Part shown: one piece after another, positions 37,890-45,493 of the stretch
How positions within the stretch are numbered: the stretch's first letter is position 1
Layout of the letters: each line of letters begins with the position of its first letter
Origin: a virus
Lineage: Duplodnaviria > Heunggongvirae > Uroviricota > Caudoviricetes
DNA: 54,238 nucleotides
Strand: one strand, 5' to 3'
IMG/VR virus record: IMGVR_UViG_2541047842_000005
Position numbers and translations under genes: made by a program
Notes under the pieces: generated by a model
The model's database searches: none
Told to the model about the DNA's origin: nothing
What the model saw: only the letters and a program-made list of their open reading frames with translations

Positions 37890-38588
37890 ATGATCCATGT
37901 TCGTACAGGACAATTTGCTGCCGTGGTGAACGGTAAGCGCTATGAGTTTAATCCTTGCTTTGCTGCGATGGCTAAAATCGGCAACGATAGTGAGCTTGTC
38001 GAATATTTCGCACTTATCCACGGCGGCAAATATCCATCACGATTGCCAGCAGATCCAGACCTACGCAATCGCATTCTGGCGCGGTGTTATGGTGAAATAG
38101 TTCAGACATCAATGCACATCCTGAAATGTTGCTCAGACGACGAAATAGGCCCGTTATTGGGCGAATGCTGGTTTACTCCTTCGGGTAAGTTAAAGTTAAA
38201 GCCCGGATTAATGCCGATCGAGGATATCATCACGCTTGCGCAGCACTGCATGTACCACGGTCTTATTGGTGATGGCCCGGAAGAAGAGTCCGGGGAAATC
38301 CCGGAAGGGGAATATAAGCCGACTTTTAACGTCCTTGAATTCGTCTATTCTGCCGTTGCTCACCTGGGCTTGTCAGAATCGGAAGCATGGAATATGACAA
38401 TGACCGGATATAGGGCCGCTGTACGCGCTAAAACGCCGCCAGACGAAAGAAACGAGAAAAGCAAGCCAAACATTCACATAAATAAACGTGCTTATGACGA
38501 GCAAATGGAGGCCGCTAAAAAGGCACTAGAAAGAATGAAAAATCGTGAGCAAGAAAAGCCCGGTAGATCCGGGCGTTTTGCTAATTGA
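37890..38588 (+). CDS. putative tail assembly chaperone
   Basis: 232 aa from ATG 37890 (SD AAGGTG; track start 37881 is a GTG); position between the major tail and tape measure genes. Confidence 0.4.
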   Translation: MIHVRTGQFAAVVNGKRYEFNPCFAAMAKIGNDSELVEYFALIHGGKYPSRLPADPDLRNRILARCYGEIVQTSMHILKCCSDDEIGPLLGECWFTPSGKLKLKPGLMPIEDIITLAQHCMYHGLIGDGPEEESGEIPEGEYKPTFNVLEFVYSAVAHLGLSESEAWNMTMTGYRAAVRAKTPPDERNEKSKPNIHINKRAYDEQMEAAKKALERMKNREQEKPGRSGRFAN

Positions 38589-38955
38589 AATCTTTAATTG
38601 CTGTACCTGGTGAACTGTGTGTGATTGTATTGTATACAGACTTTGCCTTACTGCGATCTTTCCATTCTTTTAGGATGCAGTTATCAAACTTTGCGATAAC
38701 CCTTGAAGGGGATAATTCTTCAACATCCATGTAAGTAAATCCTATCGTGCTGGTTACTGAATACCATACGTGATAACTATAATTACCGTCATGCTCGATT
38801 CTTTGTGGTTCCCCCATTATTTTATTCACTTGCTCACAAGTCATTCCAACTTGCAAATTTTTATCAGCTAACTTAACGAAATCAGTTGATCTTGCGCACC
38901 CTGTAAGAGCTAAAGCCATAACACCAATGAGAACCGCTTTGATTATTTTTTTCAT
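38581..38955 (-). CDS. lipoprotein (moron, opposite strand within the tail operon)
   Basis: 124 aa; signal peptide with lipobox LTGC (MKKIIKAVLIGVMALALTGC). Confidence 0.65.
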   Translation of the reverse strand: MKKIIKAVLIGVMALALTGCARSTDFVKLADKNLQVGMTCEQVNKIMGEPQRIEHDGNYSYHVWYSVTSTIGFTYMDVEELSPSRVIAKFDNCILKEWKDRSKAKSVYNTITHSSPGTAIKDFN

Positions 38956-38965
38956 GATTTACCCC

Positions 38966-39625
38966 TTAATTCCAGTTGCAAGCGTTTTTCACTTTGTCGA
39001 TGTGGTTATAAAGACCATCAATGTTAAACACTGCTTTCTCAATGTCGCCAGCTTCCGGCACTACTTCAATGATGAATTGTTTTTCGTTAACCAGTTTTTT
39101 AATCATTGGGATGGCTTTTTTGCCGTCCCATAATCCAAGAGCTTTATAATTAGTTGACCGCCACCACTCAGTAGCTACAGCTTTGTGAACGCCGATCCGG
39201 TAGTTAATATAAGTAGTGTCCCCGGCGTCAGTTACATGGTGTGACCATGCTACGAACATTTTTGTTTTATTACCCTGGCAAGCGATTGTTAATACCGGTT
39301 TATTCTTATCCTGTGCCTTCAGTGTCGGGAAAGCATCAAGACTTCCGCTGAATTGTTCTGCTTTCACAAAAAGGAATACGTTTTTTGCGTCCTGCATATC
39401 ATCTTTTCTTTCAACTACAAGCCACTGTTTACCAGCATTTTCTTTTTCTAACTGTGCATCGTATGCGGCTTGTTTTGCTTGTTGTTCTGCAAGCCATTTA
39501 GCATTTTTCTCTGCTAATGCTTGTTGCTCTTGATTGGTCACTATAGGCGCTTTTTCATTATCCTCATTGCAACCAACCAGACCCAATACCGCCGCAATCA
39601 TTGCCACTTTTGCTAACCGTTTCAT
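38966..39625 (-). CDS. lipoprotein (moron, opposite strand within the tail operon)
   Basis: 219 aa; signal peptide with lipobox LVGC (MKRLAKVAMIAAVLGLVGC); SD GGTGGG upstream. Confidence 0.65.
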   Translation of the reverse strand: MKRLAKVAMIAAVLGLVGCNEDNEKAPIVTNQEQQALAEKNAKWLAEQQAKQAAYDAQLEKENAGKQWLVVERKDDMQDAKNVFLFVKAEQFSGSLDAFPTLKAQDKNKPVLTIACQGNKTKMFVAWSHHVTDAGDTTYINYRIGVHKAVATEWWRSTNYKALGLWDGKKAIPMIKKLVNEKQFIIEVVPEAGDIEKAVFNIDGLYNHIDKVKNACNWN

Positions 39626-39752: not shown

Positions 39753-42095
39753 ATGGCTACCAGTGTAGGTACAATTTATTACGAAGTTGATGCGAAAACT
39801 GGTCAACTTCTCGTTGCACAACGACAGGCAGACCAGGCCTTTGATCGTATAGAGCGCGGCGCAAAACAGGCTGACCGCCAGGTAAACACCCTGAAAACAT
39901 CCATCAAGGCACTGACCAGGGTTATCCATCTGCTAATTGCTGCGGAGGCTGTGCGCCAATTTATGGATATGGCGGAGCAAGCAAAAATGCTTCGCGTAAA
40001 AATCAAAATGCTTACGGGCGATGCGGAGTCCGCCGGACGGGTTTTCGACGGCCTGAAAGCAATATCCAGGGAGACGGGGCAGAGCCTGAAAGATACTGGC
40101 GAATTATGGCAAGGCCTGGCTATCTCACTAAAAAACACCTCCGCTACGGAAGGGCAATTGCTTAACCTGGTTGGCACTATTCAGAAAATGGGTGCATTAG
40201 GCGGCGCGTCAGCGGAACAGATGTCTAACTCAATGCGTCAATTCCGTCAGTCTATCGACGGCGGTGTTCTTCGTGCCGAAGAATTTAACAGCCTGCTTGA
40301 AAATACGCCGACCATCGTACAAACAATGGCCCGCCATATGGGATTATCAATGGGCCAGTTCCGCGCCGAAATGCTGGACGGCAAGATCACGGCTGAAAGG
40401 ATGGTTAACGCAATACAGGCGGCTACGCAGGAAACAAACGATAAGTTTGCTCAGTTGCCGCGCACATCCGGCATGGCTATCAATGAGCTTAAAGTAGAAA
40501 TTATGGGCCTTGTTGAGCAGTTGGATGATCTTTTTGGCGTGTCAGATGGCGTTGTTTCAGCTATCGACTTGATCACGAAAGGCGTTAAAGGGCTTGGCGA
40601 TGGCGCTAAATTCGCTAAAACCTGCTTCGACACACTCAAAACGGCTGGTAGCGAATTTATCGACATGTTTGATGATGTGGCTGTTAAGGCTGGAGAGGTG
40701 GCCGAGAAGATCATCGCAATGGTGACGCCAATCAAGGCACTAATGGATGCCTACAAATGGATGAAGGAGGTCGTAGGAGAGCAAACCGACGAATATAACA
40801 GCAACTACGAGAAGAAATACGGTAAGACCGTTGGCAAGGTCATGCAACTACAGGATGATCTGACCGCAGCAATCCAGGCTACAGAAGAAGCAAGGAAAAA
40901 TGAACAGAATGCCGCCAATGACGGAGCGATTACCGGATTCGACAAGCCAGTAGACAAACCGAAAAAACAGAAAAAAGAGAAGAAATCTGAAGCTGATCGT
41001 CTTGGCGATAAAGGTATAAGCGTTTCTGACCAGTACAACAAAGACGCCGCCGCTATGCGCAAAGCGTTAGAGAGCGGCAAGGCCATTGATGCTGCATTCG
41101 CCCAGGGTAAAATCACTCTCCTTGAGTACCGCGCCGCGCAAAAAGGGATAGGTAAGGAACTAAAGGAAGAATTAGCACAAATTCCGGTAGAGGAATTGCG
41201 CGACAAATGGGAGCAAATAGTAAGCCCGATGGATCAGCTAAAGGGCGAAGTAGACCCTATTCAGCAGGTTCAAAATGAATGGGCCGTCCGTAAGCAAATG
41301 CTTATCGACCTGGGCGTGACGGAAGCGCAACAGAAACAGGAACTGTTAGCCTATGAGCAACAGATCCGCGATCTGAAGTGGGAGCAATGGCAGGCGCAAA
41401 GCGACACAAACAGCCTTATCGGTGATTGCGTTAATGGCCTTAAAGGTGGTATGAGCAATGCACTTGTTGGCCTGTTAAATGGTACTCAATCATTGAGTGA
41501 TGTTTTTGCTAACTTAGGCAGCAATATCCTCGGGAATATCGGTAACAGGCTTTCAGACATAGCTGCAAACTGGATAGCAGATCAGATCATGATGGAAACG
41601 CAAAGCAAAGCGACTCAGGCAAGTACCACGGCGGGCGCGGTAGCGGCGCAAGGCCAGATTGCTGCGGCGGCGGCCCCGGCGGCGGCGGCAACAGCGGCGT
41701 CAACTGGCGGCGCATGGGCGGCGGCTGGTTCTGCGGCACTCACTGCGATCATGTCGCTGGCTACGTCAATTTTTGGCGGCGGTCGCTTTAATGGTGGTAG
41801 CGTCATTGGTGGCAATATGTACCGTGTAGGGGAACACAACAGGCCGGAGCTATTCCAGACATCTAACGGAAATCAATATATGATCCCTGGCGAGAATGGC
41901 AGGGTTATTCCTGGTCGTGACATTGGCGGTGGCGGCGGCATTAGTATGCCTGTCAATATCAACATTCAGACCACAAACGGATTTAGCGACGAGGACAGCC
42001 GCAGACTTGAGCAGACAATGGAACGTGTAGCAATGAAAATGATAACAAGGGAATCACAACGACCAGGCGGAATATTGCAACCTCGCCGCAAATAA
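39753..42095 (+). CDS. tail tape measure protein
   Basis: 780 aa; long coiled-coil regions and a Gly/Ala-rich hydrophobic segment (AAAAAPAAAATAASTGGAWAAAGSAALTAIMSLATSIFGGG) typical of tape measure proteins. Confidence 0.85.
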   Translation: MATSVGTIYYEVDAKTGQLLVAQRQADQAFDRIERGAKQADRQVNTLKTSIKALTRVIHLLIAAEAVRQFMDMAEQAKMLRVKIKMLTGDAESAGRVFDGLKAISRETGQSLKDTGELWQGLAISLKNTSATEGQLLNLVGTIQKMGALGGASAEQMSNSMRQFRQSIDGGVLRAEEFNSLLENTPTIVQTMARHMGLSMGQFRAEMLDGKITAERMVNAIQAATQETNDKFAQLPRTSGMAINELKVEIMGLVEQLDDLFGVSDGVVSAIDLITKGVKGLGDGAKFAKTCFDTLKTAGSEFIDMFDDVAVKAGEVAEKIIAMVTPIKALMDAYKWMKEVVGEQTDEYNSNYEKKYGKTVGKVMQLQDDLTAAIQATEEARKNEQNAANDGAITGFDKPVDKPKKQKKEKKSEADRLGDKGISVSDQYNKDAAAMRKALESGKAIDAAFAQGKITLLEYRAAQKGIGKELKEELAQIPVEELRDKWEQIVSPMDQLKGEVDPIQQVQNEWAVRKQMLIDLGVTEAQQKQELLAYEQQIRDLKWEQWQAQSDTNSLIGDCVNGLKGGMSNALVGLLNGTQSLSDVFANLGSNILGNIGNRLSDIAANWIADQIMMETQSKATQASTTAGAVAAQGQIAAAAAPAAAATAASTGGAWAAAGSAALTAIMSLATSIFGGGRFNGGSVIGGNMYRVGEHNRPELFQTSNGNQYMIPGENGRVIPGRDIGGGGGISMPVNINIQTTNGFSDEDSRRLEQTMERVAMKMITRESQRPGGILQPRRK

Positions 42096-42101
42096 ACAAA
42101 A

Positions 42102-42131
42102 CCCCGGCACAATGCCGGGGCTATCTTTATT
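42102..42131. terminator. bidirectional rho-independent terminator
   Basis: CCCCGGC-ACAAT-GCCGGGG flanked by an A-rich tract upstream and a T-rich tract downstream. Confidence 0.55.
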
Positions 42132-42306
42132 CAATTTCATCATTTTTAAATTCGCCGTTTGCATAAAGCTGTAATGCGCTTATCAGTTCGTCAGCTTGCT
42201 TTTTGTCTATTACAATCATCTCGCAGTCGCTAACGTTCCATAATCTTCCATCATCTTCAACACTAAGATCAATCCTTCTGCATTCTTCAGTCTCATGAAT
42301 AATCAT
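42127..42306 (-). CDS. small hypothetical protein (59 aa), moron cluster 1
   Basis: MIIHETEECRRIDLSVEDDGRLWNV...; SD GAAGG upstream; not in the ORF track. Confidence 0.3.
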   Translation of the reverse strand: MIIHETEECRRIDLSVEDDGRLWNVSDCEMIVIDKKQADELISALQLYANGEFKNDEIE

Positions 42307-42345
42307 TATAAACCTTCATTATGTTATTAATTTTAGTGAATAAAT

Positions 42346-42516
42346 TTACTCAAATCTTGTATACCCTCTTTCAATTTTCCCTCCGTGTACACTTCTGGCA
42401 AATACCGCGTCAGTATACCTAAAAAATGGGCATGTATATGTATCACCTTTACTATCCATCCATTTTAGCACCCATGCCATACGTTTTACATTGCTTTTAT
42501 TTGCCGGGTTTTTCAT
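42346..42516 (-). CDS. small hypothetical protein (56 aa), moron cluster 1
   Basis: MKNPANKSNVKRMAWVLKWMDSKGDTYTCPFF...; strong SD GGAGGAAAATAAA-ATG; not in the ORF track. Confidence 0.35.
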   Translation of the reverse strand: MKNPANKSNVKRMAWVLKWMDSKGDTYTCPFFRYTDAVFARSVHGGKIERGYTRFE

Positions 42517-42634
42517 TTTATTTTCCTCCGCAAATTACAATCTTCCGTTTCTTGCTATATAGCTGCGAGAAAACATTACCAACCAAATATTCCAGATCTC
42601 CCTCCAGGTGAATTTATCGTCCTCCATACCCACC

Positions 42635-42889
42635 TCACTTATGGCAACCGCGAACGCCAGACAATTCATTGAATTTATGGTGTTCAACAATCACCCACTC
42701 CTTCAGATCCTGGCTATAGACTCGCCAGTCTAAATTGGCGCGGAAGGCGTAGCCGTAACCGTCTTTCAATTTTTTGGGTGACGCATTCTTGTTTAAAAAC
42801 GCGTTCAAAAGTTCCTTTGCTTTTTTGACTACATGCCCCGGCGCGTTTTTCTGTGCTTTCAGATTTTTGTCAATCGCTACCAGTTTCAT
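42635..42889 (-). CDS. HigB/RelE-superfamily toxin-like protein
   Basis: 84 aa; N-terminus MKLVAIDKNLKAQKNAPGH parallels E. coli HigB MHLITQKALKDAAEKYPQH and C-terminal ..LDWRVYSQDLKEWVIVEHHKF fits the RelE/HigB pattern (from memory). Confidence 0.4.
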   Translation of the reverse strand: MKLVAIDKNLKAQKNAPGHVVKKAKELLNAFLNKNASPKKLKDGYGYAFRANLDWRVYSQDLKEWVIVEHHKFNELSGVRGCHK

Positions 42890-42906
42890 AACTCACCCCA
42901 TCATCC

Positions 42907-43062
42907 TTAGTTAAGTGCCTTCAGGAAGAAGTCCCGGTATTCATCTTCTTTTGCATTCATCATGAATTGACCGTATTTGAATGCGTCGTCGAAACCCTTA
43001 ACGATTGCTATTTCCACTTGTTCGAATGCGTTGTTTAGCATTACCACTACATAGCGTTTCAT
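42907..43062 (-). CDS. small hypothetical protein (51 aa), upstream partner of the toxin-like gene
   Basis: Track ORF 42907-43137; ATG at 43062 has strong SD AAGGAGG 6 nt upstream. Confidence 0.35.
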   Translation of the reverse strand: MKRYVVVMLNNAFEQVEIAIVKGFDDAFKYGQFMMNAKEDEYRDFFLKALN

Positions 43063-43175
43063 TTTGGGCCTCCTTCGTTGGTACTGCTTTTCTTCTTGCT
43101 TTCTGTATACATCTTGTTGCGAACTATGTGAAGCCATATTGTAAACTAGCTATAATCATTGTACTGAAGATCTCA

Positions 43176-43197
43176 TTTTCGCGTAGAAGCGCGTAAA
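43176..43197 (+). repeat. 22-bp element TTTTCGCGTAGAAGCGCGTAAA (copy 2)
   Basis: Exact copy of 30455-30476; 32 nt upstream of the gpM-like gene start. Confidence 0.6.
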
Positions 43198-43229
43198 GAT
43201 ATATACAAAATGTAACTTATGGGGGTTTT

Positions 43230-43583
43230 ATGCCGGAAGTTTTCAGATGGACGCCGCAAAGAAGCTACAGCGTGACCAGGGAGCCAAACGTATCTGTCAT
43301 TAAACTTGGTGATGGGTATGAACAGCGCCAGGCGAAAGGGATCAACACATTGCTTGATAGCTACACCCTGGTTTTTAAAGGCAGTAGCGCAGGATGCGGT
43401 GATGGTGGGAACGTGGCGATCCAGGCAGAAGCATTCTTGAGGGCGCGCGGCGCTAGCGAGGCTTTTTACTGGTCGCCGTCTATGGATGGCGTGCAAAGGC
43501 TTTTTGTTTGCCGTAGCTGGAGTATGACAAAGGACGGGCCTGTATACACGCTAAACGCAACGTTTGAGCAAGTTATTAATTAG
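43230..43583 (+). CDS. minor tail protein M-like
   Basis: 117 aa; FRW...V.KV.FGDGY.QR...G.N......Y...F......FEQVIN colinear with lambda gpM as I recall it. Confidence 0.75.
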   Translation: MPEVFRWTPQRSYSVTREPNVSVIKLGDGYEQRQAKGINTLLDSYTLVFKGSSAGCGDGGNVAIQAEAFLRARGASEAFYWSPSMDGVQRLFVCRSWSMTKDGPVYTLNATFEQVIN

Positions 43584-43878: not shown

Positions 43879-44127
43879 TCATAACGCCCCCTTCAAATAT
43901 GTCAATCCCTTATCAGTGACGAATGAGTGATTAACCTGGTTTTCATCCGTCATGATGATAAATAACTTTTCCTGTAGGTATTTCGCTTTAGGGTACAGCG
44001 TTAAGCAGACCTGGTACAGTATCCCGCGCTCAATCAGCAAATCAATAAATTCGTGTTCATGATAACCGATGAGGCGGGCGGCCTGTTTCAACGTGTACAC
44101 ATAATCACCGTGATTGCGCCGCCCCAT
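43879..44127 (-). CDS. hypothetical protein (82 aa), possibly HTH
   Basis: YTLKQAARLIGYHEHEFIDLLIERGIL has helix-turn-helix character; moron cluster 2. Confidence 0.4.
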   Translation of the reverse strand: MGRRNHGDYVYTLKQAARLIGYHEHEFIDLLIERGILYQVCLTLYPKAKYLQEKLFIIMTDENQVNHSFVTDKGLTYLKGAL

Positions 44128-44136
44128 GTTGCCGCC

Positions 44137-44490
44137 TTATTTATCGAATGCTGAAAGGTTATCGATACAGAAATCTTTCGCCGCTTTTTCGTATTCGCGT
44201 TTTGCTTCTGGATCGTCAGCCGGGAAACCTTTTGCGTGTATTTCACCAGGGCAAGACTGGTCCATAGAATCTGCATAATAAGCAGTGAAGCTACCATTAA
44301 TATCTTTCGGGTTCATATCTTCCACCTTATCCGGTATTTGTACTGGAGTAATTTTGAATTCTCTGGCGCGACCGAAGAATCGAACGAGTTTTTCTCCTTC
44401 CTCGACCGCCATTTCGTAACTGTCATGCAAACCGTAACCTTCCCAATCATCACTACCAGCCATCCAGACATCAAGACGATACTTTTGCAT
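44137..44490 (-). CDS. hypothetical protein (about 118 aa)
   Basis: Track ORF 44137-44592; ATG at 44490 has SD GAGGG and follows the stop of the upstream gene. Confidence 0.4.
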   Translation of the reverse strand: MQKYRLDVWMAGSDDWEGYGLHDSYEMAVEEGEKLVRFFGRAREFKITPVQIPDKVEDMNPKDINGSFTAYYADSMDQSCPGEIHAKGFPADDPEAKREYEKAAKDFCIDNLSAFDK

Positions 44491-44494
44491 TTTG

Positions 44495-44659
44495 CTAACC
44501 CTCATATTTGACAGGTTCGATCTGGTATCCCAAAAGGCGGTCATCCTCAGCAAGTAAAAGCGCGTCAACCAATGCTTCACCCTCGTCGTCATACAGGGCG
44601 ATAACCTTTTCCCTACCGTCTGTCATGAATACCGTCAACTTCCATAGCTTTTCAGTCAT
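44495..44659 (-). CDS. small hypothetical protein (about 54-60 aa)
   Basis: Track ORF 44495-44779 is over-extended; in-frame ATGs at 44677, 44668 and 44659; promoter-like TTGATC-17-TATATT on the minus strand at about 44709-44737. Confidence 0.3.
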   Translation of the reverse strand: MTEKLWKLTVFMTDGREKVIALYDDEGEALVDALLLAEDDRLLGYQIEPVKYEG

Positions 44660-44788
44660 AACGCACATCCGCGCCATTTTGTTAACCATGCTTCCGTTTG
44701 AGTAAAATATACATATTGTAAAAACCATGATCAATCCATTTTGGTGTGATTTAGCGTGACGCATATCACAAAATGACAAGGTGAGAAA

Positions 44789-45493
44789 ATGCGCAATATT
44801 CCGAGAGAGATGATTATTGATTCCGTCGATGCCGGAGTTGGCGCGGTCATTGACTTATTTGAACTGGACCTTACTCCCCTGGGAGGCGAGGTTATCCGCT
44901 TCCATTCCGGCGCGAACGGCTATTACGGCCAGGTTATCTGGAAGGGAGTAGCTTACAACAGCTACCCGATCGAGGCGACGGGCTTCGAAATGAAAAATGA
45001 GGGTGTTTATTCACGGCCTCAAATGGTTGTAGCCAATATCGGCGGACTCATTACGGGGATGAACAACGATTTTAACGACCTTAGAGGAATGAAGGTTACG
45101 CGCCGCCAGGTGGAGGTGAAATATCTTGACGCCGTTAACTTCCCTAACGGTAATCCAGACGCAGATCCATCTATTGAGGCTGTATCTTTTTACGTCATTG
45201 AAGCAATGAGCGAAGAAACAGCGGATCAGGTGCAGTATGAACTGTCAACGCCAATTGATGCAGATAAAGCTGTCATCCCTGGGCGCACCATCCTTGCTGA
45301 CGTTTGCCAGTGGCAATACAGAGGCGACGGGTGTATGTACGCTGGCGGACCAGTAGCAAACGATAAAGACGAGCCGACAAGCGATCCTAAAGCCGACAGA
45401 TGTAGCCACCGTCTGAGCGGTTGTCGTTTACGTTTCCCGCGTCCAAATCCGTTACCAATTTCCTGTTTCCCCGGTTCAAGTAAGGTGGGCTAA
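44789..45493 (+). CDS. minor tail protein L-like
   Basis: 234 aa; C-terminal Cys cluster (CQWQYRGDGC...CSHRLSGC) as in lambda gpL; order M-L-K-I-J. Confidence 0.75.
   Translation: MRNIPREMIIDSVDAGVGAVIDLFELDLTPLGGEVIRFHSGANGYYGQVIWKGVAYNSYPIEATGFEMKNEGVYSRPQMVVANIGGLITGMNNDFNDLRGMKVTRRQVEVKYLDAVNFPNGNPDADPSIEAVSFYVIEAMSEETADQVQYELSTPIDADKAVIPGRTILADVCQWQYRGDGCMYAGGPVANDKDEPTSDPKADRCSHRLSGCRLRFPRPNPLPISCFPGSSKVG

Follow-up and report, generated by a model that had tools for sequence, protein, structure and literature searches.

p84, a phage protein of predicted RelE/ParE fold in a tail-operon cassette of mEp021/mEpimmI coliphages, has no fixed neighbour and may act without an antitoxin

The cassette and its genes

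The subject of this study is a cassette of small minus-strand genes at positions 42127-43062 of the virus record IMGVR_UViG_2541047842_000005, a stretch of 54,238 nucleotides that is here called the window and that approximates a whole phage genome in length. One of these genes, p84, encodes a protein with a predicted RelE/ParE-superfamily fold, for which the label of a toxin-antitoxin (TA) component is doubtful and for which we tentatively propose a role as an accessory effector working on its own. The structural half of the window is 84-96% identical to the mEp021/mEpimmI group, which consists of temperate, Nus-dependent, non-lambdoid coliphages (PMC11893012), and the group members matched are mEp044, mEp010, mEp515, mEp013, mEp554, mEp021 and MagusPhagus. 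The cassette lies inside the tail operon. The original prediction, which was made from the sequence of the window, had located it between a tape measure gene and a gpM-like gene, and matches of these to PF20155 and PF05939 agree with that placement. It had listed four minus-strand genes, for products of 51, 84, 56 and 59 amino acids, the coordinates of which were correct, whereas the count was not: there are five genes, a 30-amino-acid open reading frame (ORF) having been overlooked. The features of the locus are the following, with isoelectric points abbreviated as pI.

39753-42095, plus strand: tape measure gene (PF20155, E 1e-49)
42091-42131, both strands: bidirectional intrinsic terminator common to the tape measure gene (plus) and the cassette (minus)
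42127-42306, minus strand: p59, acidic protein of 59 amino acids (pI 4.25; phrog_13627, E 3e-9), variable cargo
42346-42516, minus strand: p56, basic protein of 56 amino acids, variable cargo
42535-42627, minus strand: p30, ORF of 30 amino acids, MEDDKFTWREIWNIWLVMFSRSYIARNGRL, starting 7 nt past the p84 stop codon
42635-42889, minus strand: p84, basic protein of 84 amino acids (pI 9.86), family PF24732 (ParE_like), predicted RelE/ParE-superfamily fold
42907-43062, minus strand: p51, first gene of the operon, mildly acidic protein of 51 amino acids (pI 5.14; phrog_29810)
43063-43229, minus strand: conserved leader, the elements of which are kept in the alignment of relatives
43230-43583: gpM-type minor tail gene (PF05939, E 6.5e-28)
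44789-45493: gpL gene, the next tail gene after the gpM-type gene

The ORFs of the cassette are considered to be genes rather than chance occurrences because they are conserved in relatives and evolve under purifying selection. The median ratio of nonsynonymous to synonymous substitutions (dN/dS) is 0.04 for p84 and 0.035 for p51, both indicative of such selection, and the corresponding ratio for polymorphisms (pN/pS) is 0.10 for p30, 0.18 for p56 and 0.24 for p59. We compared the gene content of the cassette over 16 loci, which are numbered with the prefix L. The p30 sequence is 73-100% identical in 13 of these, being absent from L006, L007 and L009, and it is annotated in mEp044, MagusPhagus and mEp515; its conservation and the selection acting on it indicate that p30 is a real micro-gene. 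By comparison, p56 is missing from mEp021 and L028, and p59 is absent or frameshifted in several relatives. A longer reading of the first gene, of 76 amino acids and extending to position 43137, was dropped since insertions and deletions of 1-2 nt break the frame in relatives.

In the published phage group (mEpimmI, PMC11893012), a study of which drew on 48 genomes, the cassette is a regular element; its genes are not discussed in the mEpimmI paper or its supplements (PMC11893012). It is kept in 7 sequenced phages of the mEp021 group and was identified in 35 of 5426 complete E. coli genomes, in a single copy in each and always in the chromosome.

The cassette ends at the terminator that it has in common with the tape measure gene. 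The G+C-rich stem (42100-42122), the T-runs on either strand and the arms of the inverted repeat (42091-42109 and 42113-42131) bear out the bidirectional terminator that had been proposed here, and the records of mEp044 and mEp515 annotate the same element. At the other end, the leader contains a Shine-Dalgarno sequence, AAGGAGG (43075-43069), 6 nt ahead of the p51 start codon at 43062, and a conserved candidate sigma-70 promoter that was read by eye, TTCACA (43132-43127) and TATACA (43109-43104) with a spacer of 17 nt. A consensus promoter scan did not flag this pair, the -10 hexamer of which ends in A. A direct repeat, TACGCG-N4-TACGCG (43195-43190 and 43185-43180), is also conserved in this leader, which separates the cassette from the divergently oriented gpM-like gene, while no clear palindromic operator was found in the leader by repeat search or alignment.

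Predicted fold and family of p84

The p84 protein is a direct member of the Pfam family PF24732, which it matches over residues 19-74 with 32.1 bits (gathering cut-off 24.4, E 1.2e-7), and it also matches phrog_1525, which has a function-less label. Its orthologs in E. coli prophages are named "ParE family toxin-like protein" in RefSeq by the Prokaryotic Genome Annotation Pipeline (PGAP). Close homologs are few, and all of them are found in the same phage group and at the same position. An exhaustive hidden Markov model search of 1.84 billion representatives recovered only 12 proteins at E <= 0.001, suggesting a small and divergent family, and the distant relatives from the exhaustive profile search all belong to PF24732. 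Each of the 26 aligned relatives matches PF24732 and no other toxin family in Pfam even at E 10; neither PF09907 nor PF05016 is matched by any of them. The PDB yielded nothing relevant when searched by sequence or by profile with p84 or the family profile as the query, and in the literature we found no paper in which PF24732 or the "ParE-like toxin" members of the p84 family were tested.

A structure predicted for p84 from 12 close sequences was unusable, with a predicted local distance difference test score (pLDDT) of 47.5, and the prediction was redone with 26 diverse family members. The resulting AlphaFold2 (AF2) model has a pLDDT of 85.7 and a predicted template modeling score of 0.74, and it contains strands at residues 3-7 and 10-13, a helix at 18-32, strands at 47-50, 55-59 and 65-69 and a C-terminal helix at 70-77, which is the compact alpha/beta arrangement of the superfamily. 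The best Foldseek match is YoeB (probability 0.97, E 0.039, TM-score 0.47), followed mostly by chains of YoeB/ParE, YafQ, HigB and GraT. The sequence signature of the superfamily is also present, as P38-K-K-L41-K ... W55-R56-V-Y58, which the profile alignment sets on P45...R65 of YoeB. Across the 26 members of PF24732, R56 is invariant and K40 nearly so, and H70, Y/F73 and N/D74 are found in most. Because the Foldseek matches are one-sided, though modest in score, and agree with the PF24732 match and the motif, we consider a RelE/ParE-superfamily fold to be supported for p84, as far as a predicted model can support it. The original prediction had made its RelE-superfamily assignment of the 84-amino-acid protein depend in part on such a fold being predicted, and the family match, the AF2 model and the Foldseek ranking with YoeB on top all point that way.

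Within the superfamily, p84 resembles the mRNA interferases RelE, YoeB, YafQ and HigB in the motif P-x-x-L-K ... [W/Y]-R-[LV]-x-Y, in a histidine directly after the last strand, in its small size and in its basic pI. It differs from them in that no match is obtained at the level of sequence, that the model has a short strand in place of the first helix, and that it is accompanied neither by an antitoxin of the RelB, YefM, DinJ or HigA type nor by any universally conserved partner. The family name implies ParE, yet the structural neighbors are led by mRNA interferases. ParE toxins need a long C-terminal segment for activity, and p84 has no such segment; nor was a ParD-type ribbon-helix-helix (RHH) antitoxin gene found upstream of p84, where it would be expected for ParE, or a PF05016 match in p84.

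A more specific likeness to E. coli HigB had been proposed for both termini of p84. With the exact HigB sequence (identical to PDB 5ifg_A), the BLASTP comparison to p84 gave E 2.6 and a spurious match of 5 residues. In the alignment of the p84 family profile with HigB, R56, H70, F73 and N74 are paired with R68, H88, Y91 and D92, but the alignment is not significant (P 0.037, 1.4% probability). Furthermore, p84 is 20 residues shorter, and no HigA gene with an Xre-type helix-turn-helix (HTH) domain is located downstream of p84. Judged from these comparisons, the intuition about the superfamily was right, whereas the particular resemblance to HigB is not demonstrable.

The same alignment is of interest for another explanation, namely that p84 is not a nuclease at all, but either a binding protein with the RelE fold, the C-terminal helix of which would inhibit a host factor, or a ParE-like gyrase poison. 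The toxicity of the HigB-like SehA protein of Salmonella depends on H88 and Y91 in the C-terminal helix, and SehA shows no RNase activity but binds to the double-stranded RNA-binding domain of RNase III and inhibits the enzyme (PMC12817084). The conserved residues H70-x-x-[Y/F]73-[N/D]74 open the predicted C-terminal helix of p84 and align with H88-K-E-Y91-D92 of HigB, so that a C-terminal H-x-x-Y-D/N helix motif is possibly common to p84, E. coli HigB (YgjN) and SehA; the Pfam and PGAP names, for their part, read ParE-like. With the HigB alignment non-significant, the family without matches to PF05016 and PF09907 and the ParE segment missing, we consider a non-nuclease role quite unlikely.

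Neighboring genes and the question of an antitoxin

That no HTH antitoxin is evident in the cassette had been noted from the start, and scans against Pfam, NCBIfam and PADLOC likewise found no HTH or RHH antitoxin. None of the five cassette products has a match in NCBIfam, or in PADLOC at E <= 1, and no HTH or other domain was identified by Pfam and NCBIfam in p30, p56 or p59. For p51 there was no match in Pfam, NCBIfam or PADLOC; its profile gave only a spurious match to CagT in the PDB, that of p59 gave none, and no DNA-binding domain was recognized in p51 by Pfam, NCBIfam or the PDB profile search. An RNA antitoxin of type I or type III (ToxIN-like) is not indicated at the locus, since there are no tandem or long direct repeats and all Rfam matches fall far below the gathering scores.

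Natural variants of the cassette speak more directly to the question. The p51 gene is absent from 3 of the 16 loci, namely L008 (GCA_964047275.1), L022 (E. coli UMNK88, NC_017641.1) and the metagenomic contig L027. The deletion is exact between the starts of p51 and p84, both of which read ATGAAAC, with the result that the leader and the Shine-Dalgarno sequence of p51 now front p84. The three contigs have this junction in common (L008 3990-4010, L022 1670-1690 and L027 1495-1510), yet they are only 81-93% identical to one another, which suggests that the arrangement without p51 is old. In L008 and UMNK88, p84 is intact, with a dN/dS of 0.057 between the two, and UMNK88 has a single copy of the region and no second p51.

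The genes downstream of p84 are no more constant. A gene named p49, for a product of 49 amino acids, is present in 5 loci only and overlaps the p84 stop codon by ATGA in L004, L005, L008 and L010, while in mEp515 a gene for an HNH endonuclease is inserted right after p84 and overlaps its end (L003 2729-3235). The same HNH insertion was observed in E. coli E21845/O/A (H28), and the site appears to be a landing spot for a mobile nuclease gene. An identical p84 protein (P0009) occurs with p51 only or with p49 and p30 only, and the 93%-identical p84 variant of UMNK88 has p30 as its only partner. Hence, each neighbor of p84 is dispensable in natural genomes, and none is universal, contrary to the co-inheritance expected of a type II TA pair.

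These variants bear on the hypothesis of a toxin-first module in the order of HigBA, in which p30 or p49 downstream of p84 would be the neutralizer. The position of p30 directly behind p84, its low pN/pS and its presence in all three loci without p51 fit such a module, as do the overlap of p49 with p84 and the overlapping downstream partner of the Vibrio-type PF24732 genes described below. However, L006, L007 and L009 have neither p30 nor p49 and yet encode the identical p84 protein (P0009), the HNH gene separates p84 from p49 and p30 in mEp515, and p30 has no recognizable domain. We also know of no antitoxin as short as p30, and a downstream antitoxin is in our judgment very improbable.

A genuine type II TA system made up of p51 and p84, serving in addiction or abortive infection, deserves more attention. 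According to this hypothesis, p51 is a small PaaA2-like antitoxin that binds and neutralizes p84, and loss of the prophage or attack by a phage sets p84 free. The arrangement of the genes is the canonical one, with the acidic p51 located 17 nt upstream of the basic p84 in one operon and the antitoxin gene first; the two co-occur in 13 of the 16 loci under strong purifying selection, p84 has a toxin fold, and p84 is frameshifted in one of the contigs without p51. Nor is the lack of a DNA-binding domain in p51 decisive, as some true antitoxins lack one, an example being PaaA2 from the paaR2-paaA2-parE2 system of E. coli O157:H7. Unlike that system, the p51-p84 pair has no regulator gene and p51 is naturally dispensable, and no sequence similarity between them was found.

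Against such a pair stands the old lineage without p51, in two genomes of which p84 remains intact and under purifying selection. Moreover, p84 alleles with just 64% identity to each other occur alongside identical p51 proteins, and the C-terminal variants of p51 assort freely with both types of p84 alleles, so that there is no co-variation of the two. Homologs of p51 are confined to the mEp021/mEpimmI phage group, whereas the p84 family is widespread with other neighbors, including in virulent phages, to which an addiction module would be of no use. Taken together, we find a p51-p84 TA system rather unlikely. The non-canonical small antitoxin that the original prediction had offered as one option is weakened by the intact p84 genes in the loci without p51 and by the absence of a universal neighbor, and its other option, an abortive-infection module, finds no support in the PADLOC scan or in a family that extends into strictly virulent phages.

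The wider family is mostly phage-borne, in temperate as well as in virulent phages, and the genes next to its members differ. Members are found in the virulent jumbo phages RaK2, fHe-Yen9-04, 121Q, PBECO4 and K64-1, amid small ORFs of early type, and such members cannot act as addiction modules. The RaK2 and fHe-Yen9-04 proteins have TM-scores of 0.70-0.84 to the p84 model, and the records of K64-1 and Muenster label the gene "YafQ-like ribonuclease toxin." In the siphovirus Sortsne, the PF24732 gene overlaps an unrelated upstream gene, and in two unrelated elements, the Serratia phage OS31 (L025 1168-2201), where it is annotated as "HigB-like protein," and an Enterobacter island (L012 1897-2713), it overlaps a ParB-like gene at the 3' end of the latter. 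Finally, in Vibrio aestuarianus (L017 593-1076) and a metagenome contig (L021 2501-2984) the PF24732 gene is followed by an overlapping gene for a protein of 92 amino acids. The two-gene block spans approximately 890 nt with 74% nucleotide identity, and the partner proteins are 66% identical. Its flanks differ, one copy lying next to Tn7-like tnsAB genes and the other next to BrxR, which suggests that the block is mobile.

p84 as a possible stand-alone effector

We propose that the cassette serves a temperate mEp021/mEpimmI coliphage as an accessory operon of the moron type, placed antisense in the late tail operon, and that p84 works as an accessory effector of the phage without a dedicated antitoxin. 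Since the cassette runs against the late operon, ends at a terminator of its own and is preceded by a conserved leader with a candidate promoter, it may be expressed while late transcription is silent, either in a lysogen or at an early stage of infection. The target of p84 would be RNA, or the machinery for translation or RNA processing, and it would most likely act as an mRNA endonuclease associated with the ribosome, in the manner of RelE, YoeB and HigB, without the need to be neutralized. The absence of an obligate partner is suggested by the lineage in which p51 was deleted, the lack of a universal downstream gene, the lack of co-variation and the restricted, matchless nature of p51. A stand-alone RelE-fold effector aimed at RNA or the translation apparatus is the explanation that we favor, albeit tentatively and with somewhat less than even confidence.

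Several observations admittedly weigh against this interpretation. The layout of p51 and p84 is that of a type II pair. No locus lacks both p51 and p30, and the two could therefore be redundant neutralizers. In two metagenomic contigs, p84 is frameshifted at poly-A runs, namely L027 (approximately 1560-1580), which lacks p51, and L028 (approximately 455-470); these frameshifts may reflect either decay after the loss of an antitoxin or assembly errors. The Vibrio and metagenome clade is perhaps a true toxin-first module. Furthermore, the Foldseek scores are modest, with no match at E <= 0.001 and TM-scores of about 0.45, and the promoter of the cassette is a candidate that was recognized from its sequence.

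A solo way of life as a phage accessory protein has a precedent in RegB of bacteriophage T4, an endoribonuclease with the RelE/YoeB fold and no known antitoxin that inactivates mRNAs (PMC3014915). One hypothesis is that PF24732 as a whole, including p84, constitutes a class of phage-borne RelE-fold effectors without the need for an antitoxin, carried as morons by temperate phages and also by virulent jumbo phages, that reprogram the RNA metabolism of the host or counter its systems. The members could potentially do so by selective cleavage of ribosome-bound mRNAs, as in the case of RegB, or by blocking a host RNase, as in the inhibition of RNase III by SehA. For the family as a whole, we consider such a role possible although somewhat unlikely.

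The comparison to morons, which was also part of the original prediction, holds in that the cassette looks moron-like, with its own terminator and variable cargo, while the promoter is at the stage of a candidate. Like the morons of lambdoid phages, such as bor and lom of lambda and gp15 of HK97, the cassette is independently terminated within the late operon and variable in its cargo. It differs from these in being antisense to the operon, and in that p51 and p84 are almost fixed in the group rather than sporadic.

Two other minus-strand cassettes were observed in the tail region of the window. The first, at 38581-39625 just ahead of the tape measure gene, differs in content among relatives. 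Its two products, a VasI-like protein of 219 amino acids (PF11319, E 1e-15) and a protein of 124 amino acids with sub-threshold matches to BamE and DUF7738, have lipobox cysteines and are predicted to be lipoproteins. The other, at 43879-44779 between the gpM-like and gpL genes, encodes an 82-amino-acid KilAC/ANT-like protein (PF03374, E 2e-6) and proteins of approximately 117 and 54 amino acids. The N-terminus of the former is weakly similar to the latter (hhalign E 1e-3), which hints at a duplicated small domain. We also considered whether p51 has a small beta-beta-alpha-beta domain in common with the two genes that open the next minus-strand cassette, and rejected the idea at hhalign E 0.4-0.5.

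The immediate result is modest in either case, as the gene was catalogued and the cassette is normal for a described group. That p84 belongs to a catalogued family, that its orthologs are named in RefSeq and that the cassette is standard in a described phage group was already known; the new points are the overlooked gene for 30 amino acids, the natural lineage with the p51 deletion, the lack of a fixed partner and a family that reaches into virulent phages. Together, these points make the TA label for p84 doubtful on present comparisons. A RelE/ParE fold is enough for annotation pipelines to call a gene a toxin, which sends readers in search of the antitoxin. The natural variants represent a free genetic experiment, in which a gene with a toxin fold and under purifying selection survives the loss of genes upstream or downstream. 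Should p51 or p30 nevertheless turn out to be an antitoxin, its type would be new and its size unusually small. If instead our interpretation is correct, PF24732 would be a family of stand-alone phage effectors, for which the assumption that a toxin fold signifies a TA module fails. This would bear on how phages control translation and RNA processing in their hosts, and on the extent to which TA systems in prophages have been over-called.

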